Virus genome (UHGV): UHGV-0078430
Source of the DNA: a virus
DNA: 40,470 bases
Direction: 5' to 3' (one strand)
Position 1 is the first letter of the stretch. Each line of letters opens with the position of its first letter. The notes below the pieces were generated by a model. That model saw only the letters and a list, made by a program, of their open reading frames with translations. It searched no databases and was not told where the DNA came from. A program made the position numbers and the translations under genes. This document shows positions 1 to 19,597 of the stretch, piece after piece.

Positions 1-49
1 TTATAAGTTCATCTTTAAATGATAATCAATTGCATGGGAGTTTATCACC

Positions 50-1570
50 ATGAGGAGCGTAATTACATACTTGAGATTCTCATCAGCCATACAAGGCGCT
101 GAAGGTGCAGATTCAACCAGACGACAAAATGACCTGTTCAAGCAGTGGCTGAAGAAGAATAGCGATGCTCAAGTAGTAGCGTCTTTCAGTGATGAAGGTC
201 TATCCGGTTACAAAGGTAAGCATCTTACTGGTCAGTTTGGTGACATGTTAGCCCGTATTGAGTCTGGGGAGTTTCCAGAAGGTACGATTTTGCTTGTTGA
301 GAGTATCGACCGTATAGGCCGCTTAGAACACCTTGAAACAGAAGCCTTGATGAATCGCATCTTAGGCAACGGGTTAGAGATTCACACGCTACAAGATGGT
401 CTTATCTACACAAAGGATGCTTTAGCCGATGATTTAGGAATCTCAATCATCCAGCGTGTCAAAGCCTACATAGCGCATCAGGAGAGTAAGCAGAAGTCTT
501 TCCGTGTTAGCGAGAAGTGGAAACAACGTGCAAAACTTGCCCTTGCTGGTGAACAACGTTTAACAAAGATGGTTCCCGGATGGATTGACCCCGATACTCT
601 CAAACTCAATGAACACGCTGAGACTGTAAGACTGATTTTCAAGCTGCTGCTAAGTGGTGAAAGTCTGCATAACATTGCACGTCACCTTCAAAGCAACGGT
701 ATAAAGTCGTTTAGTCGCCGTAAAGATGCTAACGGGTTCAGTGTTCATTCTGTGCGTACTATCTTAAGGTCAGAGACAACGATAGGCACACTACCAGCAT
801 CACAACGTAATGACCGCCCCGCTATACCGAACTACTACGAAGCCGCCATAGACGCTGCAACGTTCAATAAAGCTCAAGAAATCCTCGATAAAAATCGTAA
901 AGGCCGTACACCTGCAAGTGATAACCCATTAACGATTAACATCTTCAAGGGATTATTCCGGTGTCAGTGTGGGGCTAGTGTCCATCCTACCGGAACAAAG
1001 AATAAGTATGCTGGGGTCTACAGGTGCAATAACCACTTAGACGGTCGCTGTGATGTTCCACCGCTGAAGCGTAAACCGTTTGATAAGTGGATGCTTGAAA
1101 ATTTTCTAGGAATGATTGACGTGGGGAATGATGGAGAAGCAGAGGGGAAGATTGCATCTCTACAGCATGAGGTTGAAATTGTCACAACCAGAATCAAGAA
1201 AGCTACCGCCCTACTTCTTGAGATGGATGATATTGATGAACTAAAAATTCAGATTAAGGAACTGAACCAGAGGCGTACAGAGCTACAGACCACGATTGAT
1301 AACATGAGGCGTAAGGCTTCACTCACTGATAAGGAACTACCCCAGCTTAAAGATATTGACCTGACAACTAAAGCGGGTCGTGTCGAGTGTCAGTTGATTT
1401 TGTCCAAACATCTAAAAGGGCTTACATTGGGTAAGGATTCGGTAATTGTAACGCTACAGAACGACACTGAAATCACCATACCTACAAACCCGTTACCGCT
1501 AAATGATGGAACATCAATATTTGAAATTGCTGAAAAAGAGCTACTAGAAATAGACGCTTATCAACTGTAA
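50..1570 (+). CDS. large serine recombinase (integrase/resolvase family)
   Basis: N-terminal YLRFSSAIQ catalytic-serine motif and ESIDRIGR motif typical of resolvase-type catalytic domain; 506 aa with Cys-rich zinc-ribbon-like block (CQCGAS...YRCNNHLDGRC) and coiled-coil C-terminus as in large serine recombinases. Confidence 0.85.
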   Translation: MRSVITYLRFSSAIQGAEGADSTRRQNDLFKQWLKKNSDAQVVASFSDEGLSGYKGKHLTGQFGDMLARIESGEFPEGTILLVESIDRIGRLEHLETEALMNRILGNGLEIHTLQDGLIYTKDALADDLGISIIQRVKAYIAHQESKQKSFRVSEKWKQRAKLALAGEQRLTKMVPGWIDPDTLKLNEHAETVRLIFKLLLSGESLHNIARHLQSNGIKSFSRRKDANGFSVHSVRTILRSETTIGTLPASQRNDRPAIPNYYEAAIDAATFNKAQEILDKNRKGRTPASDNPLTINIFKGLFRCQCGASVHPTGTKNKYAGVYRCNNHLDGRCDVPPLKRKPFDKWMLENFLGMIDVGNDGEAEGKIASLQHEVEIVTTRIKKATALLLEMDDIDELKIQIKELNQRRTELQTTIDNMRRKASLTDKELPQLKDIDLTTKAGRVECQLILSKHLKGLTLGKDSVIVTLQNDTEITIPTNPLPLNDGTSIFEIAEKELLEIDAYQL

Positions 1571-1575
1571 TTTTC

Positions 1576-1598
1576 AGGGGCTATGAAGCCCCTTTTTA
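1576..1598 (+). terminator. putative Rho-independent terminator after recombinase gene
   Basis: 7-bp stem aggggct/agcccct with 4-nt loop followed by ttttta. Confidence 0.45.
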
Positions 1599-1602
1599 TG
1601 TC

Positions 1603-2394
1603 TCAATAAGTGCCCTTCTTGTTCGGATTTACAGAAAACTTCCGTAAAGCATTACCCGACTTAAGCACCTTTGAAGCTTGCTCATTAGCTGAGGCTGTGA
1701 AGGTGCTCTCACCATTTTTAACACTAACGCTCTTAGAGCACGTTACACGGGCTTTTAGCGCTTCATCTGATAACTCACTTGCCGAATAGCTAAAAAGCTC
1801 TTTACAGGTCAGCATAGGGCTTCCAAGACTCGTTGTAGTGTTGCCAGTGTTCTTTTTACTGGTAGCACCACCATCATTCGTAGTCGCGGCTTTTCCAGTT
1901 GCAGCCGAGATATCAGTCTGCCCCACAATAGCTTTAAAGTTAATTTCCTGAAAAGTTAGCTGGATTCTTAGGCCATTTGAAATACCAACATCTTTAGAGG
2001 CTTTAAAGCTCGTGATAATGGAATCATCAATTTTAATTCCGTCTTTACAGATGACCGAAATAATCTGCTTCTGGTCACGCCAGTTTTCCAGAGTGTCGAT
2101 GAAGTTTTCTACCAGCTTATTATCTCTTGAGATAAGGATACTACCGGATTCACCAACCACAACCACACCACTAATAGTAATTGTTCTGGGTGAACGCATT
2201 ACATTATCTGTTACAGTCTGCCCTGATTGCATATTTTGAGTGGTCACCATCATAGGGCTGTCATATTCCATGTTTTCAGTTGCTGATAGTGACAAGAAAT
2301 TATCTGGTTGGCCTTGTAGATGAAAGTAAACGCCATCTTTACCAGTGTAACGAAGCTGATTAGTGTAAATCATTAAATTCTCCTTTGATTTCAA
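1603..2394 (-). CDS. hypothetical protein, possibly distal-tail (Dit)-like by position
   Basis: 263-aa ORF immediately downstream of tape-measure-like gene, Ser/Thr-rich C-terminal half; function inferred only from position. Confidence 0.4.
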
Positions 2395-2455
2395 AGGCTT
2401 AGTGTATTTTAATCATTTTTAACCAAGCCTTTGATATATAAGTGTTTTCTCTGCT

Positions 2456-2519
2456 AAGCGTGTTGTACGTAAATTCTATTTTTCAGTGTGGGTATTAGCT
2501 TTACAGATTTCACGTAGCA
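2456..2519 (-). promoter_or_regulatory. conserved upstream element, copy 1
   Basis: about 64 bp sharing blocks (tgctacgtgaaatct, atacccac, tttacgta, cacgctta on the minus strand) with a second copy at 4601-4663; lies upstream of ORF 1603-2394. Confidence 0.45.
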
Positions 2520-2530
2520 TTCGACTATTA

Positions 2531-4579
2531 TTAATCATCTTCTGGGAATGATGAACTTAATAGCGTAGCTTCTGCATATTGGTCGTAGATATTACTGCTA
2601 AAGGTCATAAAGCTGGTTTCATCTGGTTTAATGGCAACTTCACCACCAAGTGAAACTTTCACAGGCTCCTGAATACGTTTGCTCAAAGCACTAATTTCAT
2701 CTCTCAGGCTTTGGATATCCGTATTCGTTAATGCCGCATCTTGTCTCATGGTGATTAATTCTGGATGCTGGAAGTTAGCAAGATTCATAGCTGCACTACT
2801 AAACCAACCTTTAACATCGTCCATAGTGAACACTGGTTTAAGTCCAGACTCTTTAGCTAGCTCTGGTAATTTAGCTTGTGCTTCCATTCGTTCAGGTGTA
2901 GAAGCTAATCTCTCATAACCTGCATAGATAGCACTACCAGCTAATAACATATTCCCAAGATTAAACCTTGATGGTTTCCCGTTCTTTCTATTCACGTTAT
3001 CCGCTGTAGTATCAGCGACCTGACCTAATCTTGTGATAGCAGTCATAAGCCCGTAAATACTTCTGGTTACACCAACAACTTTATTCACAGCAATAACACC
3101 AGCCAAGACTTTTAAACTATTAATCAAGCCAGAACCTAAAGCATCAACTACTTTCTTTTGTTCATCGGTTAAACCACGGTAAGCTAATGTCACCTCATCA
3201 AAGAATGCTCTTACCCTGTAGCTGATATCAGTCAATGAATCCACACCACTTGACATAGAAGTCATGAGACTACCAAGAGATTCACCAAGACTTTTACCGC
3301 TTCCACCTAAACTATTTAAAAGATTGGTTAAGCTTCTTGTGAAATCTTGAAGACCATTTTCAGAACCTCTGAAGATACTATCAAGCGTGGTATTCCAAGA
3401 GTTTTTCAGGTTCCCTAGTTGTGCCTGTGTACTTTCTGAAATAGCTTTCCAGCCGCCTTTAGCGGTGATTTGTCTATTCAGTTCCTGAGTGACCTTCTGA
3501 AGAGTATCGGCAGATTTTAAAGCCCCCTTCTTCATGGCATCAAATAATTCCTGTTCAGTCTTTCCGGTTGCTTTAGCGAATACCTGAACCATACCAGGAA
3601 CAGCTTCAGCTAATTGCCCCTTAAGCTCTTCAGCCATAATCTGACCCTTACCAGCCATCTGTGATAATGCTGTCAGTGCTCGCTTAATCTCTTCTTCACT
3701 TCGACCCATTAAACGAGAATAGCCAATCATATTTCTAAAAAGTTCTTCAGAACCTTGAATACCCATAGATTCTTTAGCTGAAGCACCAAAACCAGCAAAC
3801 TGTGATTGCAGTTCAGCGATATCTAAACCCGTTGTTTGAGCTAATGACTTTGTGAAATCTTTTACTTGACCTGCATCTTTATCAAATACGAAATCAATAC
3901 TTCTTTCCGATGATGCACGTTGAAGGCCAACTTCCATTACTCGCTGATAAGCGGATAGTACAGCCTGAAAGCTGATAAATGCACCTGCTGCTCTAACCGC
4001 TGCTGAAGACAGGTTATCAAGGCTGCTAGCTGCTCTGTCACTATTAATGCTGGTGGATGTATGACCTCTGGCTTTAGCAATTGCTTCTCTGACTGAAGCG
4101 TTTAACTGAGCTAACTTCTCATTGAATTTTGAAGAATCCATTGACCCGGCTTTAGCAGATAGCCCGTAAAACTGACTCTTAATGTATTTCTCGACAATTG
4201 GGTTAAGGCCTTTTAGCTTGCTCATATTCGCTGAGTAAGCTGCTGTGATTGCTCTGTTTCCGCTAATTCGTGGCTGTCTTGGTTGTTTTGGAGGATTAAC
4301 AGTGTCATTAAATCTGGTGGTAAACTGGAAAGCTTTAGTATTTCTTGCTCTCTGTTCAATCTTGTCAAAGGCCTTATTAAACTTCCTTTCAAGTTGCCCT
4401 AAAGAACTTGTCAAATTACTATCAAGCTGTTTTGTATTAATCCTGAAACCTTTATTTAGGTTCTTTTCAATTCTTTGTGCTGACTGCAAAGCTGCCTTTT
4501 CAACTCTTTGCAGTCCCTTAATAACGTTCTCGCTGAAGCCTAGCTCAACGATAAAACTATCAACTTTAAATTGTGCCAT
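2531..4579 (-). CDS. phage tail tape-measure-like protein
   Basis: 682 aa, coiled-coil N-terminus, central region resembling tape-measure domain (GLDIAELQSQFAGFGASAKESMG ... ALSQMAGKGQIMAEELKGQLAEAVPG ... FAKATGKTEQELFDAMKKG), Gly/Ser-rich segment; assignment from recalled motif pattern. Confidence 0.6.
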   Translation of the reverse strand: MAQFKVDSFIVELGFSENVIKGLQRVEKAALQSAQRIEKNLNKGFRINTKQLDSNLTSSLGQLERKFNKAFDKIEQRARNTKAFQFTTRFNDTVNPPKQPRQPRISGNRAITAAYSANMSKLKGLNPIVEKYIKSQFYGLSAKAGSMDSSKFNEKLAQLNASVREAIAKARGHTSTSINSDRAASSLDNLSSAAVRAAGAFISFQAVLSAYQRVMEVGLQRASSERSIDFVFDKDAGQVKDFTKSLAQTTGLDIAELQSQFAGFGASAKESMGIQGSEELFRNMIGYSRLMGRSEEEIKRALTALSQMAGKGQIMAEELKGQLAEAVPGMVQVFAKATGKTEQELFDAMKKGALKSADTLQKVTQELNRQITAKGGWKAISESTQAQLGNLKNSWNTTLDSIFRGSENGLQDFTRSLTNLLNSLGGSGKSLGESLGSLMTSMSSGVDSLTDISYRVRAFFDEVTLAYRGLTDEQKKVVDALGSGLINSLKVLAGVIAVNKVVGVTRSIYGLMTAITRLGQVADTTADNVNRKNGKPSRFNLGNMLLAGSAIYAGYERLASTPERMEAQAKLPELAKESGLKPVFTMDDVKGWFSSAAMNLANFQHPELITMRQDAALTNTDIQSLRDEISALSKRIQEPVKVSLGGEVAIKPDETSFMTFSSNIYDQYAEATLLSSSFPEDD

Positions 4580-4600
4580 TGTTCATATTTCACCTCTGTT

Positions 4601-4663
4601 AAGCGTGAGCTACGTAAAAAATAATTTTTGGTGGGTATATCTGTTCAGGAGATTTCACGTAGC
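4601..4663 (-). promoter_or_regulatory. conserved upstream element, copy 2
   Basis: second copy of the 2456-2519 element, ends about 20 nt upstream of the tape-measure-like start codon; contains 7-bp inverted repeat gctacgt/acgtagc. Confidence 0.45.
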
Positions 4664-4789
4664 ACACATACAAAAAAGGGAGAAACTACCGAATAATATC
4701 GATAATCTCTCCCCGTGTTATAGATTCGATAGAACCTATCTCATACACCCAACCAATTCTATTAGATTCGATTAGAAGCTAATCTCAAA

Positions 4790-4999
4790 TTAATGCCTGA
4801 CAAGATAATGTAGTTCCGTTTCACCTATAATTTGAGCATCGGAAGGGATACGGTCGATACACCACTTTGGAATCTTGCGTGTTTTTGGTTTGCGTGAGGT
4901 GATAATTTGATGTTTGGTTTTAATTCTTAAGGCTGGCTTAGTTTGTAACTTTAAGTTTTCACAAACAGACCGGATAGTCTCTAAACGTTCTTCAAACAT
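4790..4999 (-). CDS. hypothetical small basic protein
   Basis: 69-aa ORF between two larger minus-strand genes; no recognisable motif. Confidence 0.3.
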   Translation of the reverse strand: MFEERLETIRSVCENLKLQTKPALRIKTKHQIITSRKPKTRKIPKWCIDRIPSDAQIIGETELHYLVRH

Positions 5000-5022
5000 T
5001 AATCACCTCTTTTAATTCATAA

Positions 5023-5733
5023 TTAAAGCACCTTTGAGTACTTCGTTGAAATCTTCGTTAACTGCTCAATATCGGCTTGCATAGCAATCTTCTTCTGCGT
5101 TTCATATCCACTAACAAGCTCTTTCATGCTATCAAGTTCTTTTCTAAGTTTTTGCTTTAACTTATCCAGTTTACCGGAATAATGCTTAGTCAAATTAGCT
5201 TCAGCTAACTGAAGAATCTCTTCGTCTGTCTTATCAGTCATCAGGATAAATTGACCAGAACCCCTTAATGCTTGTCTGACATCAATTAACCGGAACCCTT
5301 CAGGGATACTTTGAAGAACTTTAGGAACGTCTTCAATCGCTGTACCAAAACCATCATTAAAGTTTCCTTCATAATAGATAAACGGGTTTGACTTAATCTC
5401 GTAAGCAATATCATATTCTGAAGGTTTCGAGGTTTCTTCGAAGTTCTTAACAGCATCGTAAGCAATATCAAGTCGAATACGCTGTTCTTTTAGCCGTGGG
5501 TAATATTCACGCTCAAGCTCAAATAGTGCTTCAGTTTTGCAAACATCAGGCATCTCCTGAGGTTCAGGATACACAAAGATGGTTGTTTTTGGTGACATCT
5601 TTAGCGATTGCTCAAGCTTAATTCTTTCATCGTGTTCTTTACGCTGGATAGTGATAGCTGGATGTTCAGTCTGTGGTGACCAGTCCCCGAAGCTATCAAT
5701 CTTTCTGCCGTTAATAAATAAATCATTTGTCAT
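5023..5733 (-). CDS. hypothetical protein
   Basis: 236-aa ORF with Lys/Glu-rich coiled-coil-like C-terminus; no recognisable catalytic motif. Confidence 0.5.
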   Translation of the reverse strand: MTNDLFINGRKIDSFGDWSPQTEHPAITIQRKEHDERIKLEQSLKMSPKTTIFVYPEPQEMPDVCKTEALFELEREYYPRLKEQRIRLDIAYDAVKNFEETSKPSEYDIAYEIKSNPFIYYEGNFNDGFGTAIEDVPKVLQSIPEGFRLIDVRQALRGSGQFILMTDKTDEEILQLAEANLTKHYSGKLDKLKQKLRKELDSMKELVSGYETQKKIAMQADIEQLTKISTKYSKVL

Positions 5734-5940
5734 TATAACTTCCTCTAAGTGTGGTTATTTCTTAATAGAGCACCTTCAACGCCAATACACTTAGAAGATG
5801 ACTTAACGATTTATTAAAGATGCTCTATTAAGAAAAGCCCTAAACATAGGTTCATCCTTATCTGTGAAGGGCTTTGGAGTTTGCTTATAACGTTAACGGA
5901 GTTTCAGGAAAAACTTTCTTTAAAAGCTCTGTTTAAAAAC

Positions 5941-5973
5941 TCTTAAAGAAACGCCCTAACTCATGATTAGGGC
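5941..5973 (-). terminator. putative terminator between upstream 4-gene operon and downstream genes
   Basis: stem gccctaa/ttagggc with 7-nt loop; on the minus strand followed by gtttcttt. Confidence 0.35.
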
Positions 5974-6304
5974 AAAGCTGTAAGGGTTCAATAATGAATG
6001 ATTAAGCACTTTTTGATATATAGCCTATCTAGTGGGCTAAATAGGCCATGTAGCGAAAAGCATTGCACCTTTCAGAATGTTCGGTATAGAACATACCTCA
6101 CCAACTCAGAATATCCATCCATCCATCGGATTATTGAAAGAAAAATAAGAGAGAATTACTCTCCCATAATTAAAATTATGTCATGCTTAAGGTTATTTGT
6201 CAACAGCTTTTTAACAGATTGGTAACATTAATTCTTATTTACCGTGTTACCTACCCAGCAACCAACAAATAAACCCAAAGCTGTCCAAGCAATTATTAAG
6301 CCCA

Positions 6305-6649
6305 TTAATGCACCACCTTCGAATCCGTCACCAAAATATTGTCAGCGTACAAAATTGCTATAGCTGCCTTGAGATATCCTTCAGGGCTAACGCTGTATTT
6401 GTTCGTTTGCTCGATAACCAATCTTTTCATGTTGCTGTCTTTAATTGGTAGCATCATTCGAGGCTCGTTAAACTCCACCGACTGAATAAAGTCAGAGATG
6501 CTTTCCGCATTATCAGCCATTAACTCTAACAACTTATCAAAGTCAATGCTAACACCTACATCAGTGAAAGCCTGAATCATCATAGCGGTGTCGTTATCAA
6601 CCATAATTTGCATTGGGTAATTGTTCATTTTTAAATTCCTATAAAACAC
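6305..6649 (-). CDS. hypothetical protein
   Basis: 114-aa ORF, last gene of a co-directional 4-gene cluster; true start may be internal Met (MNNYPMQ). Confidence 0.45.
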   Translation of the reverse strand: MFYRNLKMNNYPMQIMVDNDTAMMIQAFTDVGVSIDFDKLLELMADNAESISDFIQSVEFNEPRMMLPIKDSNMKRLVIEQTNKYSVSPEGYLKAAIAILYADNILVTDSKVVH

Positions 6650-6765
6650 ATCTTAAATCTGCCAAAATAGCCATTCTGAGGCCAGTAACCATGCGGGTTA
6701 CAGAGGGAGTGAGACACCTTAGTAATAGGGTAGCTCATCTTTGAGTCTCACTCATTCTTACAGGC

Positions 6766-7152
6766 TTACACAGACGCTTTAATCTTGTAGTATTGACTGC
6801 GTGATAAACCGTATTTCTCAGAAATATAACTTTGTGATTGTCCTTTGGTGATTGCATCAATGATTAAATCTTTATCGTATCTTTTACCGTTGGCTTTGTG
6901 CTTGTCGCCACTTTTAATAGAGTTGAAATTCTCAATTAATTTAATGGCGTCTTTAAGGTCGTCTTCGTAAGCATAATCAAAACCCCTGATAAACTCGAAA
7001 TCACCATTATCTTTTTGTGCTTCAGTCCAGATATCAAATCTTGAGGCTAATTGCTGGTGGGTAAACTTGGGCTTATTGGTTTGTGTTACGTCTTTCCAGA
7101 CTTTACCGTCAAATCTTACCAAATGGTCACGATGTTTATAAAAGTCATACAT
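6766..7152 (-). CDS. hypothetical protein with C-terminal helix-turn-helix
   Basis: 128 aa; C-terminus ISEKYGLSRSQYYKIK resembles HTH of resolvase/terminase-small-subunit/transposase-type DNA-binding domains. Confidence 0.5.
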   Translation of the reverse strand: MYDFYKHRDHLVRFDGKVWKDVTQTNKPKFTHQQLASRFDIWTEAQKDNGDFEFIRGFDYAYEDDLKDAIKLIENFNSIKSGDKHKANGKRYDKDLIIDAITKGQSQSYISEKYGLSRSQYYKIKASV

Positions 7153-7430
7153 TAAACCTCCATCGCTAATTTGTGAATTTTAATGCTTAGTAACCTTGCT
7201 AAATCCAGTCCAAAAGCATTTAAAGATTTCAGATTATCAAGGTCGGCTTGCTCAATCCTGATATGGTGTCTTGCAGCCTCTAAGCGGCTATTAAGCAAAT
7301 CTTGTTCGTTAATATCACGGTTAATTGCAAGCTTCATCACTGCTGAGTGTGGCAGACCTGTAATGTTTTTGATTCGGTTCAGTTCATCAAAGGCTGTCTT
7401 TGTAACTCTGGTTAAAGTGTGTTTGCTCAT
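7152..7430 (-). CDS. hypothetical protein
   Basis: 92-aa ORF; start overlaps stop region of upstream gene and stop abuts next gene (translational coupling). Confidence 0.45.
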   Translation of the reverse strand: MSKHTLTRVTKTAFDELNRIKNITGLPHSAVMKLAINRDINEQDLLNSRLEAARHHIRIEQADLDNLKSLNAFGLDLARLLSIKIHKLAMEV

Positions 7431-7431
7431 T

Positions 7432-7989
7432 TTAAAATTCCTCTGTAACTAAATACGGGTCAAACTCGAAATCTGGTTGCTCGTTTTCCATTGGCTCAAT
7501 ATTTCCAACGGCAATATGATGCTCAACAACACCAATTAACTTTGCGCACATTACAGCAAGCAAAGCGCAATATTTATCGCTTGGTAATTCATGGCTAAGT
7601 CTGGTTGCTTGACGCTGAAGATGATTTGTCACGGTGGCTGAGTTAATTTCATCAAGACTTCGCAGTAAATAAAAAACCTTCTGGTTGTATTTCTGGTGAC
7701 CCTCGCTTCTGCAAAATCCAATAAAAATATCATCAAGCTTGCTCGGTAGTTGCGCGTAGCTGTCAAAGCTAGCCAGATAATTCTTGATGCTGTTCTTTGT
7801 TGTTTTGCGTGTTGGCATGTAACGGTTCCTCGGTGTAATTGCCCGAATTACTTCGTCAATGCCTTTGCGTTCTTTCTTGGTAAACTTGGGTAATTCGTGG
7901 CTGGTGGGGGAGTTTGTGTAAGCGTAGGAGTTGTGCTTGTTGCGTTCTCTTGATGCCTGAAGCATCGCTCTAAATTCTGCGTCTCTCAT
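7432..7989 (-). CDS. hypothetical protein
   Basis: 185-aa ORF, first gene of the 4-gene cluster; divergent promoter region upstream (7990-8112). Confidence 0.5.
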   Translation of the reverse strand: MRDAEFRAMLQASRERNKHNSYAYTNSPTSHELPKFTKKERKGIDEVIRAITPRNRYMPTRKTTKNSIKNYLASFDSYAQLPSKLDDIFIGFCRSEGHQKYNQKVFYLLRSLDEINSATVTNHLQRQATRLSHELPSDKYCALLAVMCAKLIGVVEHHIAVGNIEPMENEQPDFEFDPYLVTEEF

Positions 7990-8076
7990 TCATATTCTGA
8001 CCCTCATAAGATGTTATTATTCTGTTAACTTATATAGACAATACTAGCATTTTCAAAGACTAATGTCAAGCATTTT

Positions 8077-8106
8077 TTAACATTTTATTAACATCTGTGG
8101 TATAAT
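8077..8106 (+). promoter_or_regulatory. putative sigma70 promoter with extended -10
   Basis: TGgTATAAT at 8098-8106 with ttaaca -35-like hexamer about 17-18 bp upstream. Confidence 0.4.
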
Positions 8107-8286
8107 GGTTCTATGGGGAGAGTAAAATATAAAGGCGTGGCTATGATTTGGTCACATGGTTATTGCATTGCACACAGACCTCTTCAATCGCTCTGTAACG
8201 AGTTAAACAGCCTCTTAAGGTCAACTATAAGGTCAGGTACTTTTTTGTGTCAGAATGCGATTGAGAGCGTCTTACAAGGAAAACTA

Positions 8287-8463
8287 ATGGTAAATCTCCC
8301 TCCTGAGCTGGGGTCACCTGATGTGTGGGCTGGTGGAGGTGTGGGTCTGTTCGCAGGTCTGTTACTTCGCTACGTCCTCGTCAGGGTGCTTGTTGTCTTT
8401 AGACTGTTCGGTCGTACATGGACGCTTGACCTTAAGGATAACAACCACACAGACCCCCGTTAA
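8287..8463 (+). CDS. small hydrophobic (single-pass membrane-like) protein
   Basis: 58-aa ORF (MVNLPPELGSPDVWAGGGVGLFAGLLLRYVLVRVLVVF...) preceded by AAGGA RBS; sits in a locally GC-rich patch inside the AT-rich island, downstream of a strong promoter; both overlapping frames are open so coding status is uncertain. Confidence 0.3.
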   Translation: MVNLPPELGSPDVWAGGGVGLFAGLLLRYVLVRVLVVFRLFGRTWTLDLKDNNHTDPR

Positions 8464-8476
8464 ACTCCCTTCAAAA

Positions 8477-8515
8477 CCCCCTGTACGAGATGGTATAGGG
8501 GTATCTTTAGCATTT
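8477..8515 (+). terminator. weak terminator-like hairpin
   Basis: cccct/agggg stem with 14-nt loop followed by T-rich tatctttagcatttt. Confidence 0.25.
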
Positions 8516-8583
8516 TGTGCTATCTATTAAAAAACAGCTTGACATAACCGGAAAGCTGTATCTATCAAGTATTCACCTCTCTG

Positions 8584-8755
8584 ACAGTAATTGCTAAAAG
8601 TTCTTATTTTTCAATAAGTTGTAATTAGCCATATATAGAGAACTGACAAGCCTCTTCACAGTTAACTCTGAAACCTTAACAGTAAATTCTAAAAGTTCTT
8701 ATTTTTCAATGAGTTGTAATTAGCCAATATAAAGGACTGACAAGACCCTTCACAG
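8584..8755. repeat. tandem direct repeat, 2 copies of about 78 bp at 95-bp period
   Basis: 8584-8661 and 8679-8755 align along their length (acagtaa.t.ctaaaagttcttatttttcaat.agttgtaattagcca...gactgacaag.c.cttcacag). Confidence 0.7.
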
Positions 8756-8783
8756 AGAACTTCCTGGACTCACTAAGATACAA

Positions 8784-8990
8784 GGCGATAACCCCAGAAA
8801 GGGAGAGCCACCTTCTTAACCGACTTCTTAAACAATCTTTACAGACCCCGTTCACCAGTCTCAATATTTTTATTTCTCGCTCTTCGTTTGTTGCTCGTTT
8901 CTATTATTGAGGGGGTTTGAAAAACCTCTGTAAAATAACCCTTCCAGTAAAAAGCGAATAACCCCAGACAGGGGAAATCGCCTCTTTAAC
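8784..8990. repeat. two copies of about 36-bp element
   Basis: gcgataaccccagaaagggagagccaccttcttaac (8784-8820) and gcgaataaccccagacaggggaaatcgcctctttaac (8954-8990). Confidence 0.4.
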
Positions 8991-9021
8991 ATTCTCGTAA
9001 TCAGTGCTCTATATGAGAATT

Positions 9022-9684
9022 TTAGCCCAACCTTTGAGCAATCCTGTATGACGTGCTCAGAGGCATTCTGAGAGCATCTGCAATGCACTTAATGGGTTTG
9101 CCTTGCCTGTATAGTTTTATGAAGCTGTCGAGCGTCTCAGGTGGGTAAATGGTGGGTCTTCCTCTTAAGCCTCCTCTGTTAATGATGGTTAACGGTAATA
9201 GCGTGTCAGCACAGCAAACCATCTGCGTAATTTCATGCTTACGTGGTTCTTTTTTAAAAACAACGACTGCACTTGGAAACGGTGAACGAATAACAAGCCT
9301 GTTATGGCCTGCTGGTGGAAGGTATTTAACTGCACGATGAAGAATACGGATTTCATGGCAAAGCGGGTTTGTGAAGATGTGCTTAAGCCAGTATATGGTT
9401 TGGGGTCGGTACGGTATCAGGAATACCGCTAAATCTGCTTCAGACGCTTTTACGAGGAATGTTTTAGTGTCGCTGTATGGTGGGTTACAGAATACCTTTT
9501 CACCAACCCATGACTGATTGTGGATATCATCGGTGAACCGTGGCAACAATGCGTCATGCTCAGTTGCAGCACCATCCAGACTGAAACTAAACTCACGGTG
9601 TAAGTTCTTGAATAATAAAAATGGAGTTCTCCAGTAATCAGAACCCCCATGATGTTTCCCGATTAAAATACACTCAATTGACAT
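9022..9684 (-). CDS. phage-type DNA N6-adenine methyltransferase (Dam family) with C-terminal HTH
   Basis: FCNPPYSD catalytic motif, DGAATEHDALLPRF upstream motif typical of phage Dam-like MTases; C-terminal HTH-like tail (LSTSYRIAQRLG). Confidence 0.8.
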   Translation of the reverse strand: MSIECILIGKHHGGSDYWRTPFLLFKNLHREFSFSLDGAATEHDALLPRFTDDIHNQSWVGEKVFCNPPYSDTKTFLVKASEADLAVFLIPYRPQTIYWLKHIFTNPLCHEIRILHRAVKYLPPAGHNRLVIRSPFPSAVVVFKKEPRKHEITQMVCCADTLLPLTIINRGGLRGRPTIYPPETLDSFIKLYRQGKPIKCIADALRMPLSTSYRIAQRLG

Positions 9685-10001
9685 AAGAAATAAAAATTTT
9701 TATTGCAATCACTCTTGACAAGGTTTACTCTCTTTTAAGAGATACTTAACAGGCTTTCTAAACGGATATCCTTTCTGGGATATCTATCTCTTATCTTAAA
9801 AGTCTTTATAGATACTTTAAAGATATCTGTATTAAATCTGTACAGTAACTTTTCAGACTCTGAAAATTTTTATAAAATCGTAATAGCCCCTCTTCAAATT
9901 CCCCTTCTAAAAATCTTCGAAAATATCTATCACAGGTCTATACCTGCTAAGTACCCGCCACACCAGCTATGTGACCCCCTTTGCAGAATTTTAAAATATC
10001 T

Positions 10002-10766
10002 ATGAGGTTTATTCGATAGAGGTTGGTACAAGCCCAACTAACCGAATCAACTATTGACTTTCTTCATAGTATCTGTTAACTCCACCTCAAGAAACCTTCA
10101 TCACACTTCAAAGCATCTATCAAGAAGATTTAACCTATCAATAGCTGTAACATTTTATAGTTCTGTGAAGTCCTATCCAGTTTTCTCTGTAACAGACACA
10201 AACTTCTGTGACCTTATGTATCAATGACTTACAAGACATGCTCTCAAGGTGCTGTATAGCCTCTTATCAGCCAATACACAAAACCCTTATAAATCAGTAC
10301 TGATACATATACAGTGTGTTTTTAACATAATAGCTGTTTTACGCACTAATCGTGTTCTACATGAAATCTGTATAGATATTAAGGTGTCTGTAAGTGATTT
10401 TTTAAGAGGAACTACGAAGGAACTATGAGGTTGATTCCTAGAACTAACCGAATCAACTATAACCATCACCTCCTAACTTTCACATAGCTGATTGTTATCT
10501 CTTGCAACTGTAACGTATGGTGACCAAACATCTATATATCGTTATATAGCCCTGTATATAGCACTTTTCTAGGAGTCTGGAGAGGGACGACTAACACGAT
10601 ACAGTTTACCCTGAAAAGAGACTTCACAGATTCTTTATATATTTCAATAAGTTAGGGTAAAAAGAGACTATGCTGATACTGCATAGAATCTGTGTAAAAC
10701 TGCTTAGATACTTGGGAAAATGCCTTTAAATTGCATAGTCATAGGGGTTGGAACAAGCCCAACTAC
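10002..10766. repeat. family of three related 25-55-bp elements in an ORF-poor region
   Basis: 10002-10056 atgaggtttattcgatagaggttggtacaagcccaactaaccgaatcaactat; 10424-10460 atgaggttgattcctagaactaaccgaatcaactat; 10741-10766 ataggggttggaacaagcccaacta; core gttgg-N7-ccaac dyad. Confidence 0.5.
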
Positions 10767-11054
10767 ACCTGATATTGTCCTGTAATTAACAGGTCTCTTA
10801 GAAAACCGAATAGACTTCATTCAAGGGTCATTGAAGTCATAATCATTTCAGTAGAAAAACCAGGTCTCGATTTTAAATGCAAATAGCAATCATATTCAAT
10901 AAGGCAAGACGATCAGGATCAGTGAAAATGTCATTTTTGGCGTAATTACCCTTACTTTATGCATGGCCTTAACAAAGACATCATCTTTCCGTTGCAGATC
11001 TTCGCCCTTTCAAATAACGTACTTTACAACTTTCCCGAACAAGGAGTTGTGCCC

Positions 11055-11351
11055 GTGTTGTATGTTATTTACGCTCAAGACAAAGCTGATAGCCTCGAAA
11101 AACGCCTTTCCGTTCGTCCGGCACATTTAGCACGTTTACAGTTACTGCATGATGAAGGTCGTTTGTTGACAGCTGGTCCAATGCCAGCGGTAGACAGTAA
11201 CGATCCAGGGGCTGCGGGATTTACTGGCTCAACCGTTATTGCTGAATTTGAATCGCTGGAAGCAGCTCAGGCCTGGGCCGATGCTGACCCGTACGTAGCG
11301 GCAGGAGTCTATGAACACGTTTCAGTGAAACCATTTAAGAAAGTGTTCTAA
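11055..11351 (+). CDS. yciI: YciI-like protein
   Basis: 98-aa product from GTG start with AAGGAG RBS 8 nt upstream; sequence (RPAHLARLQ...GRLLTAGP...ADPYV..GVYE) matches my recollection of enterobacterial YciI family; the longer ORF from 10959 is probably not the real start. Confidence 0.75.
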
Positions 11352-11415
11352 TTTATTAGAAATTTGCACTTAAATCAAAAAGTTACGGACAATTCAACCA
11401 CCAATCAATAAATTA

Positions 11416-11450
11416 AAGGGCACATTAAAGTACACAATATTTGTGCCCTT
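11416..11450. terminator. hairpin between convergent yciI and invertase genes
   Basis: 9-bp stem aagggcaca/tgtgccctt with 17-nt loop, T-rich flank; weak as intrinsic terminator. Confidence 0.3.
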
Positions 11451-11469
11451 CTCTGTTTCTTTCCCGTTA

Positions 11470-12018
11470 TCAGCTAGCTGGAAACTTTTTATACAGAGTT
11501 GAGAGCCCTACTCCATACGTTTTTGATACGCTTTGTCGTGATTCACCGGTTGCCATCCGCTCCCCCATTTCCCGCCATTGCTCATCCGTGAACTTAGGCC
11601 TGCGACCACCAACTCGCCCTTTTGCCCTGGCTACGGCCAGCCCTGCTAAGGTACGTTCGCTATTAAGATCAGATTCATATTGTGCTGCGGAAAGGATGTT
11701 ACGAAAGTTATAGCGGCCGCTGGCTGTTTTGAGATCCACGCCATCGGTAATACTGCGGAAGTTGATACCCTTTTCCTGTAACTGCTGGAACATCAACAGC
11801 GCATGCAGAACGTTGCGGCCTATCCTGTCCAGCTTCCAGACCACCAGTTCATCCCCCGGCTGCATAGTGGCGATCAGCCGTTTTAGAACCGGCCGATTCG
11901 ATTTCCTCCCGCTGGCATGCTCTTCAAAAATTTTCTCACAACCCGCTGACTTGAGCGCCGTTAGTTGCAATTCAGTGTCCTGGTGGTTTGTTGATACTCG
12001 GGCATAACCGTAAATCAT
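11470..12018 (-). CDS. site-specific DNA invertase (Pin/Gin/Hin/Cin family small serine recombinase)
   Basis: MIYGYARVSTNHQ catalytic-Ser N-terminus, VVWKLDRIGR motif, C-terminal HTH (VGLSTLYKK); start trimmed to internal ATG at 12018 with AGGAG RBS 7 nt upstream. Confidence 0.9.
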   Translation of the reverse strand: MIYGYARVSTNHQDTELQLTALKSAGCEKIFEEHASGRKSNRPVLKRLIATMQPGDELVVWKLDRIGRNVLHALLMFQQLQEKGINFRSITDGVDLKTASGRYNFRNILSAAQYESDLNSERTLAGLAVARAKGRVGGRRPKFTDEQWREMGERMATGESRQSVSKTYGVGLSTLYKKFPAS

Positions 12019-12021
12019 GGG

Positions 12022-12048
12022 ATTTCTCCTGTTATGAAAACAGGAGAA
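12022..12048. other. 27-bp inverted repeat overlapping the invertase RBS
   Basis: minus strand tttctcctgtt-ttcat-aacaggagaaa, 11-bp arms with 5-bp spacer immediately upstream of the invertase start codon. Confidence 0.3.
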
Positions 12049-12077
12049 ACGGCGAAGCATCACCAGATTTTTGATGG

Positions 12078-12103
12078 TTATAAAAAAGGTTGGTTTGGGA
12101 AAC
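12078..12103. other. candidate hix/gix-like recombination site
   Basis: ttataaaaaaggttggtttgggaaac resembles my recollection of 26-bp hix/gix sites (TTATCAAAAACC..GGTTT..); only one copy found. Confidence 0.3.
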
Positions 12104-12152
12104 ACGAAGTATGAATGTAGTGCACCACATAAATTTCGAATCTTTGGCAAGC

Positions 12153-12183
12153 AAAACTGGATCACTAATAGTGATCCAGTTTT
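12153..12183. other. perfect 31-bp palindrome
   Basis: aaaactggatcact-aat-agtgatccagtttt, 14-bp arms; downstream of tail-fibre stop; terminator or protein-binding site. Confidence 0.4.
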
Positions 12184-12251
12184 AAATACCAATCGAAGGT
12201 TAAATGGTGGGCTTGTTGAGCCTAGAGCCTGTACATAAATTTTTTATTTTA

Positions 12252-14687
12252 CTATTCCATCTCGTCCATTCTCTTCATGACCATTGCGATATTCCGTCGT
12301 TGAAGCGCCGCCTCCATCACCAGAGCCTCCTCATATCGGATGCCGTATTTCTCACCGACAACGTAAGATTCAGCTATCAGCTTTTCATGCGCTGGTTCGG
12401 TCATGTTCCACAGCTCTGGTGAAACCTGTTTCCCATCGTCATCATAAACCGCTGGCACGACTTCATACACAGCAGGGACTGATTCATAAACAGCGGGAAT
12501 GGTTTCTTCTGGGTCGTAGCAAAAGAAAGCAAAACTATGAGGATCAAGGCCGTGGCGTTCAAAAGCCTCCTTGGCACGCTGAGCAATAATTCCAAAGTGC
12601 CAACGAGCACCGTCATCACCCTTGGCCTCTATCCTGTCGATAAACTGGAACTGCACGAAATCTACTTCCGCCCAGGCGTCCAGGATAATATCGGCATACG
12701 AGTCTTCCATCAGCCTGGGATCGGATACCGCCTCTGGCTCGAGGGACCCACGTGCCAGCATGACTGGACGTGATTTTTGTAGCTCATCGGATGTAACGGT
12801 GAACGCCGTCTGAGTGAATCCGCCAGCCCATATGGATGAGCTTGTCCCGACGCTATACGTGTTAGTCGCAACCGGCTGAACATTCCCGGTCACTCGAAGA
12901 GGCGAAAATACATCACTGACCGTAGCCGCAAATCGGGCTAACTCAGTACCCGGCGAATCCTCTGTAGAACCAGAATAGAGACGAACGCCGTTTTTACTGA
13001 ATATCGTGGTCGCAGATAAATCGTTAGCACCCTTTATCACGCCAATTCCAGCCTGCCAGTCCGCAGAACTGGGGCCTGTGACATCAGTGATGCTGTGCAG
13101 AGTTCCGCCCATCCGCCCGAACGGATCTGTAACGTTATCAAGATGCACCCCTCTTATCGTTATTTTACCAGTACTGCCGCCACCAGATACAAACCCTACA
13201 GGGCAATCCTTAAAAGTTACTCCACTTAACTTCGCGTATTTCCTGTTGATGATTGCGGCTCTGCTAACGTCTCTGCATACCAGCCCATTAATTACCGTAT
13301 CGTCCCCATTACCATACTCTCGGCCAGTCGATGTGCCACTGGTTGAGGCGGTGACAGATAAGCCATCTTCCGCGTTGGCTATCTGAATGTTAGAACCCCG
13401 GCAGTGCCGCTCTTCTATCCAGACGCCGTTTTTAAGTCGTCCGCCTTCATCACCGATAGCAACGATATTATTAAAATTAACAAATGGTGCCTTAATGTGC
13501 AGTCCGATTAACGTTGTGTAATCAGCACCAAACCGGTTTTGAACGACCGTTATGTCAGATACGTTTGCCCACGCACTCGATCCTCTTCCTTCTAAACTAC
13601 CAATCGGGCCTTGCTTGATACGAACACCCGCCCCAGGACAGCCAACGTCTCCAAAGTCAGAAACGTAGACATTAGATACTTTTGGCGCAATAGACATAAC
13701 ATCAACACCAGCCCAGGGGTTATTTGGCTCATCAAGCTGGCCGAAGTTAAATACGAAAATGTTATTAAGATGGAATGCGCGGCTGACAGATCCGTTATCT
13801 TTAATATCAATCCCATCAGCGCCGGTATTTTCTGACCAGTAACCATCAATAACGCACCCTTTGTAGCCGCCGTTCTGCAAACCCAGCCCATAGTGGGAGC
13901 AATTTTTAACCTTTAGGTTGTTGATGCTGAGACCCTCAATCCCCGCGCCGACCACCCCCTCTGTTTGTCTTACATAAGACGCAGACGTGAAATCTCCATG
14001 ATAGTTACCGTCAATGCAGATGTTGTGCAGACCTACACCATGAACTTTCGTAATGCCGTTTTGCAGCGGAGCCTTGGACCACTGGATAACGCCGTATGCC
14101 GAGTTGGTTGCATAAGCCTGAATGGTGGTTGAATTCCACCCCTGCCCACACAGGATTACGTTGTCGTAAGGAATGCGAAGAGCTGCAACGCGGATGGTCG
14201 CGGTCGAAGAGCTGAAATCAGACTCATCCATATGAACCTGATAAAGGCTTTTGGTGAAAACAATTCTTCCACCGCCAGCAGCGCTTAGTTCTGCTGCTTT
14301 TTGCATAATTTTATCGGCGTTAGATTTAGCGACAGTGATCGATACCAATCCACTTACAACACCAAATGATTCGGCTGTAACTTGAATACCTTCTAATCCA
14401 AGGTTTGTGGTAATCGCTGTCGCCAGCTTTGCCACCAGTCCATCAACGTCACCATCATCGAGCGCGTCCAGTTCGGCGTTCGCGATAAACTGCCCCAGTA
14501 CAGCCGCCATCGTCGACGGTTGGCGCAGCGCTTTACTGACCTGTGCGCTGGATGCTTTACCCGAGGAGAATCCTTTCTTCAGTGCGGTTAGCGTCTCCCA
14601 TTCCTCCTGCGAGGTAACATTTGCATTAGCATCTGTCGCAAACGCTTTAAAATCATTAGTTCCAGCCATTAAAGTAATCTCCCCCAT
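12252..14687 (-). CDS. tail fibre / tailspike protein with beta-helix-like central domain
   Basis: 811 aa, Gly/Asn/Val-rich repetitive central region typical of parallel beta-helix tailspikes, C-terminal tandem PAVYE repeats; last gene of tail module next to invertase. Confidence 0.7.
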   Translation of the reverse strand: MGEITLMAGTNDFKAFATDANANVTSQEEWETLTALKKGFSSGKASSAQVSKALRQPSTMAAVLGQFIANAELDALDDGDVDGLVAKLATAITTNLGLEGIQVTAESFGVVSGLVSITVAKSNADKIMQKAAELSAAGGGRIVFTKSLYQVHMDESDFSSSTATIRVAALRIPYDNVILCGQGWNSTTIQAYATNSAYGVIQWSKAPLQNGITKVHGVGLHNICIDGNYHGDFTSASYVRQTEGVVGAGIEGLSINNLKVKNCSHYGLGLQNGGYKGCVIDGYWSENTGADGIDIKDNGSVSRAFHLNNIFVFNFGQLDEPNNPWAGVDVMSIAPKVSNVYVSDFGDVGCPGAGVRIKQGPIGSLEGRGSSAWANVSDITVVQNRFGADYTTLIGLHIKAPFVNFNNIVAIGDEGGRLKNGVWIEERHCRGSNIQIANAEDGLSVTASTSGTSTGREYGNGDDTVINGLVCRDVSRAAIINRKYAKLSGVTFKDCPVGFVSGGGSTGKITIRGVHLDNVTDPFGRMGGTLHSITDVTGPSSADWQAGIGVIKGANDLSATTIFSKNGVRLYSGSTEDSPGTELARFAATVSDVFSPLRVTGNVQPVATNTYSVGTSSSIWAGGFTQTAFTVTSDELQKSRPVMLARGSLEPEAVSDPRLMEDSYADIILDAWAEVDFVQFQFIDRIEAKGDDGARWHFGIIAQRAKEAFERHGLDPHSFAFFCYDPEETIPAVYESVPAVYEVVPAVYDDDGKQVSPELWNMTEPAHEKLIAESYVVGEKYGIRYEEALVMEAALQRRNIAMVMKRMDEME

Positions 14688-18532: not shown

Positions 18533-19597
18533 CTAATTCGTCGTCCCTTGCATTGCTTTCGGGCTATAAAGATCACGAGCGCCACGCGCAAAACACATCA
18601 AATCCATGTACCACGCCTGACCTCTGGTGTCGCCAGTATAGTCGATAGCTTTGACGATATAAACGCCATCCGTCGCAATGCTGGCAGCCTGTGACGTCGT
18701 GCCGGTCAGCACACGGTTGCCGTTCTCTTCTGTTTCGGTGATACGCCCGGGCGACTGTGCTATTTCGCTATTGCCGAGCGTGGCGCGGTACACCGAAGCC
18801 TGATCGAGCTGGATAAGACCATTAATACGGATGTTTGGGTTTATCAGGCACCGCACGTTTACTCCGCCGCCCATCGTTTGTTGCGGCATACCGATCAGGC
18901 CAGTATTGGCATTCAACACAATGGCTTCGTGAATATATTTATCCTCCGGCACCATCTGGACCTGACCATCCACCAGTTGCCATGTCGCTTTGCACTGCGC
19001 AGCAATATTATCCATCACGTTGCGGCTGGATGAGTAAATCGCGCGGCCACGAGGAAACACGGTATCAGGAAAATCGCCGGTAATGCCCTGTGTCACGCCG
19101 AACGCGTTGAAATCCTGCATCGTCGCCCGGTGCAGATCCGCAACGGTATAGCCAGCGGCAAGCGTGGTGATGGTAGTCGCGTAGAGGAACGCTTCGTGGT
19201 TACTGATGGCCTGAATCAGCACCCAGGAATCGGTGATGTTGTCCTTCCCGGTGACGGTGAAGCGAATATCACCGTCAAATATCAGGCCGTAGTTCTGACC
19301 GTTCACCTGCCCTACCTGGTCTGGTGAAATCTCCCGGGCGACACCAACCTGGCTCGCATCAACATCCGGCGCAATACCGTCATACCCGGCAATGATGCGA
19401 ATTTTTGCAAACTCCTGCCCCAGTATCTTGTTCGTGGTATCGGTCGAAAGGTTGTAAATTTTCACGTTTGCCACGCGCGGCCAGCGTGTATCTGCCCACT
19501 CGATCTGGAACGTGACCTTAAAATCAGACAGGGAAATACCCTGCCCGTTCTGGTCCAACAGCTGCAACTCAAAATGGCGCATCCAGTTAAGAGACAT
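18533..19597 (-). CDS. putative baseplate hub protein (Mu gp44 / P2 gpD-like by position)
   Basis: 354 aa; located between tape-measure-proximal genes and V-like gene. Confidence 0.5.
   Translation of the reverse strand: MSLNWMRHFELQLLDQNGQGISLSDFKVTFQIEWADTRWPRVANVKIYNLSTDTTNKILGQEFAKIRIIAGYDGIAPDVDASQVGVAREISPDQVGQVNGQNYGLIFDGDIRFTVTGKDNITDSWVLIQAISNHEAFLYATTITTLAAGYTVADLHRATMQDFNAFGVTQGITGDFPDTVFPRGRAIYSSSRNVMDNIAAQCKATWQLVDGQVQMVPEDKYIHEAIVLNANTGLIGMPQQTMGGGVNVRCLINPNIRINGLIQLDQASVYRATLGNSEIAQSPGRITETEENGNRVLTGTTSQAASIATDGVYIVKAIDYTGDTRGQAWYMDLMCFARGARDLYSPKAMQGTTN

Follow-up and report, generated by a model that had tools for sequence, protein, structure and literature searches.

A 53-bp palindromic unit at the head of two tail genes in an Escherichia coli island and upstream of cre in P1-like phages

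Two copies of a repeat before two tail genes

The virus genome UHGV-0078430 (40,470 nt; this whole stretch is referred to as the window) opens with an AT-rich island of ~11 kb (positions 1 to ~10,950, 36-45% GC), which lies beside a yciI-like gene and a prophage. Two consecutive genes of this island, coding for a tape-measure protein and a Dit-like 'baseplate' protein, are each preceded by a copy of a repeated element. These copies, termed A and B, contain a 53-bp palindromic unit that is followed on the gene side by a short box. A third, degenerate copy is found at the non-coding end of the island. The features concerned are the following:

4714-4677, minus strand: intrinsic terminator (16-pair stem, then T6), ending 12 nt upstream of copy A
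4664-4599, minus strand: copy A, upstream of the tape-measure gene; 53-bp unit at 4662-4610, with left arm CTACGTGAAATCT, a centre made of ATACCCAC and an A-tract, TATTTT (4623-4618) and right arm TTTACGTAG
4607-4599, minus strand: box of copy A, CACGCTTAA (its CACGCTTA part at 4607-4600, the final A at 4599)
2531-4579, minus strand: tape-measure gene (682 aa), lying between copies A and B
2519-2455, minus strand: copy B, upstream of the Dit-like baseplate gene; 53-bp unit at 2517-2465, with arms as in copy A, a variant centre, TAGAAT (2478-2473) and box CACGCTTA (2462-2455)
2393-2432, minus strand: hairpin AAAGGCTT..AAGCCTTT between copy B and the ribosome-binding site of the Dit-like gene, kept in related islands
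1603-2373, minus strand: Dit-like 'baseplate' gene, downstream of copy B
10487-10346, minus strand: third, degenerate copy at the non-coding end of the island (span 131 nt), with arms CTATGTGAAAG (10487-10477) and CAGATTTCATGTAG (10370-10357) and box CACGATTAG (10354-10346)

Taken as direct repeats on the minus strand (2449-2519 and 4594-4664), copies A and B form the longest direct-repeat family of the window, with 72% ungapped identity over 71 nt. The original prediction had recognized these two imperfect copies correctly. The blocks that it had listed (ATACCCAC, TT(T)ACGTA and CACGCTTA) are all present and follow the same order in both copies, and copy A indeed ends (4599) 20 nt before the ATG of the tape-measure gene (4579). 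Copy B starts 12 nt after the stop codon of that gene. Between the two copies the ATACCCAC block is offset by 2 nt, while the total length is unchanged. An inverted repeat GCTACGT/ACGTAGC had been expected in each copy. It exists in copy A, where it comprises 11 pairs allowing one G-U; in copy B, the right arm reads ACGTAC and the complementarity is limited to TACGT/ACGTA. The 15-mer TGCTACGTGAAATCT has two exact occurrences in the window. With up to 3 mismatches it has five matches against 1.03 expected, a number that was reached in 0 of 100 shuffles.

Copies A and B share all four features by which the family is defined below: the inverted arms CTACGTGAA/TTCACGTAG, the 53-bp span, the central ACCC(A/G)C and a CACGCTT box on the gene side. 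They are not chance repeats. The third copy has the arms and the box of the family but spans 131 nt, and its arms and centre have the opposite orientation to those of copies A and B. Intact versions of it are seen in four other loci (L089, L099, L129 and L149). It is bracketed by a 25-nt hairpin-forming sequence, ATAGAGGTTGGTACAAGCCCAACTA, that occurs at 10016-10040 and again at 10741-10765, 725 bp apart. A fourth arm pair (18925-19022) is devoid of a box, lies within the coding region of the prophage and was judged a chance match.

The terminator at 4714-4677 separates the tail-gene module from the genes upstream. It is taken to be real because the changes in its stem are compensatory between related islands.

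The unit in related islands and in other mobile elements

Related islands are present in 468-534 of 5,426 complete E. coli genomes (~9%). By pattern scans of viral and metagenome contigs, together with the E. coli loci, 139 instances of the element were gathered at the positions of copies A and B (called the satellite positions, after the reading of the island given in the last section). They represent 40 distinct cores, 36 of which measure exactly 64 nt; one has 65 nt and another three are enlarged by a 27-nt insertion. The core consists of the 53-bp unit with inverted arms, CTACGTGAA(A/T)TCTG...CAGA(A/T)TT(C/T)ACGTAG, and of CACGCTTA(A), which begins 2-3 nt further on. In its short form the unit reads CTACGTGAA..N35..TT(C/T)ACGTAG, with inverted arms of ~9-15 bp; in some islands (L012) the arms are complementary at 14/15 positions. 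Only a few variants of the centre exist, and each is found at position A or B depending on the island. Because such mosaic variants occur at either position, the two copies evidently exchange sequence. In every right-arm variant from the satellites that was examined by eye (TAGAAT, TAGATT, TATTTT, TAATTT and TAGTTT), TAnnnT is kept at unit positions 40-45, although the inner bases vary.

The 27-nt insertion is a mini-hairpin, GGATAAGAATTATCC or, with a compensatory change, GGATAGCCTTCTATCC. It stands beside either arm in mirror orientation (L070 6970-7050, L129 9840-9917, L069 6960-7010), and in some islands where the arms are gone it alone remains before the tape-measure gene.

The unit is also found well outside these islands. 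Counting both strands, the 53-bp span is kept in 78 of 92 distinct units. Among these the centres are unrelated, the GC content of the loci ranges from 0.31 to 0.59 (the lowest values belonging to loci that are possibly chance matches) and the paired stem measures between 9 and 19 bp. The original prediction had called for a search for more copies, and had named the lack of conservation in homologous elements as the outcome that would speak against it. The decayed third copy in the window, the 139 satellite instances and the units in P1-like and other phages answer that search, and the conservation is extensive.

The closest true relative of the island copies is the unit in the cre upstream region of P1. 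In P1, P7, SJ46 and Cronobacter phage JK004, the unit comes ~100 nt after loxP and a LexA box, and in this P1-type arrangement it stands ~40 nt upstream of cra-cre or of a gene for a 356-aa protein. The P1 unit, GCGCTACGTAAAATCTG..CAGATTTCGCGTA(G)C, occupies nt 167-216 of GenBank X03453; in P7 (AY751747) and SJ46 it is followed by CGCAC-TTAGC. The X03453 record annotates the putative -10 of the cre promoter pR1 (TAAAAT, 175-180) within the left arm of the unit. In P1, the arms differ by G>A and A>G changes and the centre is inverted in comparison to JK004 and the satellites. A LexA-box-like sequence, CTGTATATCCATACAG in JK004 (L182 3560-3600) or CTGTAAATCCATACAG in P1 (L181 100-120), lies between loxP and the unit, where it overlaps a site resembling a promoter, and paired GATC sites are located just upstream of the unit in JK004 and P1. 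This sequence layout suggests SOS and Dam inputs to cra-cre expression. Searches of literature text, including the arm sequences as strings, returned no description of the palindromic unit. To our knowledge, its presence upstream of P1 cre had not been pointed out before.

Further units were found in several other settings. They stand directly before Cre-like genes that adjoin c1-like genes (L172, L177 and L200), before another tyrosine recombinase gene (L130), between terS and terL in a group of ~60-kb phages, directly before terL of a GC-rich phage (L023, 12 nt from the ATG) and between convergent genes of a bacterial chromosome (L118). The copy number is low, with one unit in the 94-kb JK004 genome and three in the 11-kb island. 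Wherever a direction can be judged, the box faces the gene: this applies to the three satellite positions, to P1, P7, SJ46 and JK004, to the terS|terL phages, to L130 and to L118.

When all island proteins were compared to JK004 by tblastn, zero shared proteins were found, JK004 being the only carrier outside the satellites that was checked in full. Open reading frames within 3.5 kb of ten non-satellite units were likewise compared to those of the island (all-against-all blastp), and none was shared with the island. The only proteins shared in this comparison were Cre-like and c1-like proteins, among the P1-like loci.

Possible modes of action of the unit

From its sequence and placement, the unit probably is a cis-acting control of expression, working at the DNA or the RNA level. 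Within this joint reading a cassette acting on duplex DNA is ranked first and a stem-loop in the mRNA leader second. Our tentative first choice is thus a duplex-DNA promoter/operator cassette for a factor that the island does not encode.

Each element would then be a portable cis-regulatory cassette that acts at the level of duplex DNA in front of a gene. Its parts would be the two-fold-symmetric core of 53 bp, with the arms CTACGTGAA and TTCACGTAG held at constant spacing, the central ACCC(A/G)C beside an A-tract, and the directional CACGCTTA box facing the downstream gene. With such cassettes the tape-measure and Dit-like genes would have been given matched control regions behind the terminator, so that both helper-derived tail genes would be switched together. 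The right arm of the satellite units would supply a weak -10 of the sigma-70 type (TAnnnT) with a poor -35. The symmetric arms would bind a dimeric or tetrameric factor, probably not encoded by the island and most likely a host protein, and the bound factor would occlude or activate the core promoter. Transcription would begin where the right arm ends, and the transcript would open with the box. The anatomy, fixed length, polarity, conservation and distribution of the unit, as well as its absence from the putative helper phage wV8, are shown by the sequences, whereas we infer that the unit acts as a promoter, where the transcript starts, and that a binding factor exists and where it comes from.

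Several lines of evidence point in this direction. The terminator ends 12 nt before copy A and the remaining 85 nt up to the ATG are filled by the element, so the tape-measure transcript most simply starts in copy A. The length of 53 bp is held despite unrelated centres and a varying stem, which argues for a duplex site that depends on spacing; a hairpin needs no such constraint. The central motif is conserved regardless of its orientation to the gene, as expected of a double-stranded site: 19 of 29 positions match in the same orientation between the satellites and JK004, and 20 of 29 match in inverted orientation between JK004 and L172 (99th percentile of the null 15, maximum 17). P1-like loci with the same flanks carry either orientation of the centre. 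The third copy lies at the island edge with no island transcription upstream of it, and in L149 a short stretch and then a terminator come after it. Finally, the binder seems to be specific to neither the island nor its putative helper, the Felix-O1-like phages represented by wV8, because no protein is shared with JK004 or with the neighbours of the ten units and the unit does not occur in wV8.

The idea of duplicated promoter-operator modules in the original prediction fits this anatomy, as judged by the terminator 12 nt upstream, the TAnnnT of the right arm, the common polarity and the overlap with pR1 in P1. A regulator dedicated to them, also part of that idea, is not supported: the unit occurs in P1-like phages, between terS and terL and before tyrosine recombinase genes, no protein is shared with JK004, and wV8 is devoid of the unit.

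A number of observations weigh against an action on duplex DNA. In a scan for the sigma-70 consensus (9/12 matches) nothing was found in copy A or B, and the -35 is poor; the best candidates by eye are TGAACA-18-TATTTT in copy A and, in copy B, TAGAAT without a -35. A candidate binding protein could not be named. Some islands (L069 and L071) have no arms before the tape-measure gene, where a small hairpin and what is left of the box are all that remains, and variants with the 27-nt insertion exist at functional positions. In GC-rich phages, the unit ends 9-12 nt before the ATG and the Shine-Dalgarno sequence touches the right arm. As the unit lies inside late operons (terS|terL) near the Shine-Dalgarno sequence, an RNA element fits better there than a promoter. 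The JK004 unit is probably transcribed as a leader, because a better promoter, overlapping the LexA box, is located ~75 nt upstream. The last two points of this kind come from the stem itself. By our own count, eight independent transitions affect one side only of a pair in the core stem (nine core pairs), and 7 of these 8 leave a wobble-compatible pair on the gene-sense strand (one-sided binomial ~0.035, to which strand-biased mutation could contribute), and one variant completes the series G-C > G-U > A-U.

These last observations are what would be expected if the arms paired in the mRNA, with a stem of 9-19 bp and a loop of 15-35 nt directly 5' of the ribosome-binding site. Such a stem-loop would control the processing, stability or translation of the next cistron, possibly as a site for a universal host RNase (for example RNase III) or as a 5' stabiliser, and it would uncouple adjacent late genes (tape-measure|Dit, terS|terL). 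This possibility is the less likely of the two, yet a good deal agrees with it. In an ungapped alignment of 36 diverse units, the complementarity is specific to the register: 75% of cells are paired, as against 24-46% when the partner is slid. The wobble-compatible events include both arms of the third copy in the window as well as L123. The pairing is extended in some contexts (19 bp in L118; fold z = -5.6 for L118 and -4.1 for L166), long loops of 80-143 nt are tolerated, and the inserted mini-hairpin has a compensatory change of its own (GGATAA/TTATCC versus GGATAG/CTATCC). The positions are intercistronic, with the right arm touching the Shine-Dalgarno sequence in L176 and L023. A promoter lies upstream in JK004, and an extended -10 in L174 would place the first base of the stem at the transcription start.

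However, a hairpin explains neither the total length of 53 nt in spite of the varying stem nor a loop motif that is kept as its complement when flipped. The covariation is weak overall, the observed score being reached in 49 of 500 column shuffles, and the satellite copies fold no better than shuffled sequences (z = -1.4 to -1.5). The 10-nt arm sequence is conserved far beyond structural need. When positions 1-11500 of the window were searched with the covariance models of Rfam 15, which include ribozymes and riboswitches, no match overlapped the units even at E <= 5. Furthermore, the left arm would be untranscribed if pR1 of P1 starts where it is annotated, and the terminator before copy A leaves no obvious source of a transcript.

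Whichever nucleic acid is read, the reader could be a conserved host machine (either a regulator that binds DNA or a factor that works on the gene-sense strand) that unrelated mobile elements tap for their timing. We consider this doubtful on the sequence evidence. The consensus sequences of IHF, Fis, the DnaA box, CRP, ArgR, sigma-54, boxA/Nus, ops/RfaH, XerCD and ParB (parS/box A) were compared informally, and none fits all contexts. Should it hold, the machine would be used by P1-type phage-plasmids (lox-cre), temperate phages (terS|terL) and Felix-O1-type satellites (tail genes), as a shared 'mobile-element regulon' signal with a reach comparable to that of the LexA box. The satellite would then possess a switch that senses infection by the helper with no repressor of its own. 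A host factor reading the unit as a regulatory signal would make it a new control motif common to otherwise unrelated mobile elements. If true, this would also offer a handle on how the satellite of a strictly lytic phage times its substituted tail parts, and on the control of Cre expression in P1, where the unit lies between loxP and cre.

It is improbable that the unit serves a DNA transaction other than transcription, such as terminase action and packaging initiation, replication priming or another nucleoprotein assembly. The layout would be that of lambda cosB or P1 parS, a bent centre flanked by two arms, and the satellite would exploit phages that use the unit. The exact placement between terS and terL in two unrelated phage groups and the three copies in the island are in line with this. 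So are the fixed spacing, symmetric arms, A-tract and orientation-free central motif, which resemble the architecture of cosB and parS. A heptamer ATTTCAC/GTGAAAT in the arms matches ParB box A of P1. The P1 arms themselves, however, are imperfect matches to box A, and P1 pac and parS are located in other parts of the P1 genome. P1-like genomes have a single copy, at lox-cre, and the unit does not occur in wV8, the representative of the only phage group that matches the tail genes of the island. Neither the steady polarity towards the start codon nor the placement at two consecutive gene starts has a rationale in packaging.

Equally slight is the chance of a selfish or neutral palindromic repeat, resembling a miniature inverted-repeat transposable element (MITE) or prone to form hairpins, that would link tail-gene alleles by recombination and have no role in expression. 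Centre variants do move between positions A and B in different islands, the centres flip their orientation as the loops of hairpin DNA do, and some islands have no arms before the tape-measure gene. The B variant with ACCAACATC and the MFDTKQIR allele of the Dit-like gene invariably go together (31 instances each). Against this stand the low copy number (one per 94-kb P1-like genome, three per island), the lack of a visible target-site duplication at the flanks, the constant polarity to genes, and the strong purifying selection on length, arms and box across very different genomes. The purifying selection makes a functionless, recombination-prone palindrome unlikely. Excision between the repeats, as one form of the delimited cassette that was the second option of the original prediction, found no support either: both halves of a synthetic junction without the tape-measure gene, in which the upstream flank runs straight into copy B and the Dit-like gene, are present in 453 E. 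coli genomes and are never contiguous (0/453).

Other identities were rejected as well. The right arm is not followed by a T-run on either strand, as an intrinsic terminator would be. A lox-type core has two inverted repeats of ~13 bp around a spacer of 6-8 bp, while the arms of the unit are ~25-35 bp apart; in P1, P7 and JK004 the genuine lox site is a separate one, ~100 nt before the unit. For an integron attC site, the arms are without the core-site consensus RYYYAAC/GTTRRRY (by inspection), and the tape-measure gene is present between the copies in all 453 genomes. Terminal inverted repeats are present as in a MITE or a Correia-like repeat, but there is no flanking duplication and each element has only one to three copies. 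An 11-mer, TCTCCTGAACA, is common to the 5' untranslated region of cspG; nothing further is shared with this cold-shock leader and the match was judged due to chance.

When compared to known systems, the unit of the P1 cra-cre upstream region (pR1) belongs to the same sequence family as the island copies, although P1 has a single copy and places it before a recombinase operon rather than tail genes. The PeSL (promoter-early stem-loop) elements of T4-type phages were reportedly termed 'mobile regulatory cassettes' by Arbiol and colleagues in 2010. PeSLs are repeated intergenic modules of ~50-80 bp with a promoter-like part and a stem-loop; they flank single open reading frames, and recombination between copies shuffles gene modules. 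The likeness lies in a repeated intergenic module near genes. However, PeSLs are early sigma-70 promoters present in many copies in one phage lineage, whereas the 53-bp unit has no clear sigma-70 promoter, one to three copies per genome and a fixed length, and is common to unrelated mobile elements.

In the late promoters of P2 and P4, the Ogr/Delta dyad TGT-N12-ACA is shared with the helper and is bound at -55 by zinc-finger activators encoded by the helper or the satellite. There, too, a satellite puts identical dyad-symmetric sites before late genes for joint switching. In contrast, the 53-bp unit is absent from the putative helper, no activator for it was found, and its dyad spans the whole core promoter region. 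The RNase III hairpins of T7-type phages, finally, are irregular structures of ~50-60 nt between late cistrons that are read by a universal host enzyme and uncouple neighbouring genes. They show no 10-nt conservation comparable to that of the unit, and neither its fixed length with a variable stem nor its orientation-independent loop motif. The PeSLs, the P2/P4 dyad and the T7 hairpins come nearest to the unit in how they work, yet it fails at least one defining feature of each, and it may represent a previously undescribed variant among repeated, gene-proximal control cassettes.

The island as a probable satellite of Felix-O1-like phages

The island starts with the large serine recombinase, followed by the Dit-like gene, the tape-measure gene, six small proteins without family matches and a fusion of a Dam methyltransferase with a helix-turn-helix domain. 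For five of the small island proteins, searches of Pfam, PHROGs and NCBIfam gave no function. Two further genes of the island are:

50-1570, plus strand: large serine recombinase, the island integrase
9022-9684, minus strand: Dam-type N6-adenine methyltransferase with a C-terminal resolvase-type helix-turn-helix (HTH_7/HTH_23)

The only phage relatives of the island are the Felix-O1-like phages. The Dit-like protein is 72% identical to its wV8 counterpart (85% at the nucleotide level), and the tape-measure protein is 30% identical to wV8 gp74. In wV8, the Dit-like homologue (gp75) directly follows the tape-measure gene (gp74) with zero intergenic space. The tape-measure protein used as a query against contigs with one genome per species retrieved 3 loci.

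Two non-coding stretches of the island also resemble wV8. Positions 9745-9807 match the DNA that precedes wV8 gp46 (86% identity over 63 nt), with a hairpin GGATATC..GATATC as part of the match, and positions 9845-10000 are 70% identical over 161 nt to an unannotated gap of 1.6 kb in wV8 (13.9-15.5 kb). By their sequence, both are candidates for a helper-responsive promoter, an origin or packaging mimicry.

In a blastn search of both copies of the 53-bp unit against 50,697 phage records only chance matches were returned, and a motif scan of the complete wV8 genome gave no arm pair and no box. A copied helper promoter, as in the strategy of P4, was rejected on these grounds. The intergenic regions of wV8 share a different motif, CTTAAAAG/CTTTTAAG, which is unrelated to the unit, and the wV8 record (8100-13630 of locus L170) annotates nine families of 40-80-bp direct repeats before small early genes.

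The island is integrated at several sites: wrbA/ymdF, beside tonB, yecD/DUF72 and lafU. MRE162 and ECNB21-M121 are among the E. coli strains that have it. A circular form is represented by a metagenome contig of 11,233 bp with a terminal overlap of 55 nt (11,178 bp as a circle), in which the recombinase end is joined to the non-coding end. The large serine recombinase, the several integration sites, the tail genes and two non-coding stretches that match wV8 and the circular contig would all fit a PLE-like satellite.

In PMC12987554, the PLEs that parasitize the lytic myovirus ICP1 in Vibrio cholerae are described as small islands with a large serine recombinase. The same source states that PLEs encode their own tape-measure and baseplate-hub proteins, which replace the phage versions in chimeric tails. 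Since PLEs likewise replace the tape-measure and baseplate-hub of the helper, and the tail genes of the island match those of Felix-O1-like phages, the island is probably a PLE-like satellite of Felixounaviruses. It is small as well, with its own large serine recombinase and its own genes of the tape-measure and baseplate-hub type. It differs from the PLEs in its host (E. coli and relatives) and in the origin of its tail genes from Felix-O1-like phages, and is likened to them by its gene content. It looks like an undescribed E. coli member of the PLE-like satellites, and would appear to be the E. coli counterpart of the Vibrio PLEs.

Felix-O1-like phages are used for typing and biocontrol. An island that is present in about one in ten complete E. 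coli genomes and carries its own Felix-O1-derived tape-measure and baseplate-hub genes could block and ride such phages.

Some further features of the window lie apart from the repeat copies. A non-coding gap of 570 nt contains, on the minus strand at 6203-5945, a near-consensus sigma-70 promoter (TTGACA-17-CATAAT with TG) followed directly by a terminator-like hairpin at 6167-6145 and then by another at 5974-5952. This region may be a small RNA or an attenuator. At 8041-8106, two strong promoter-like sites stand back to back (8069-8041 on the minus strand, 8077-8106 on the plus strand) between early-looking genes and a region where a 48-nt sequence is repeated in tandem (8584-8631 and 8679-8726, with 94% identity). 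This arrangement hints at a regulatory switch, and the 48-nt repeats are possibly iterons. Directly beyond the yciI-like gene that borders the island, a prophage-like block extends from 11470 to 40470. It starts with a Hin-type invertase and a tail-fibre-like gene for an 811-aa protein, and its long open reading frames are all on the minus strand.

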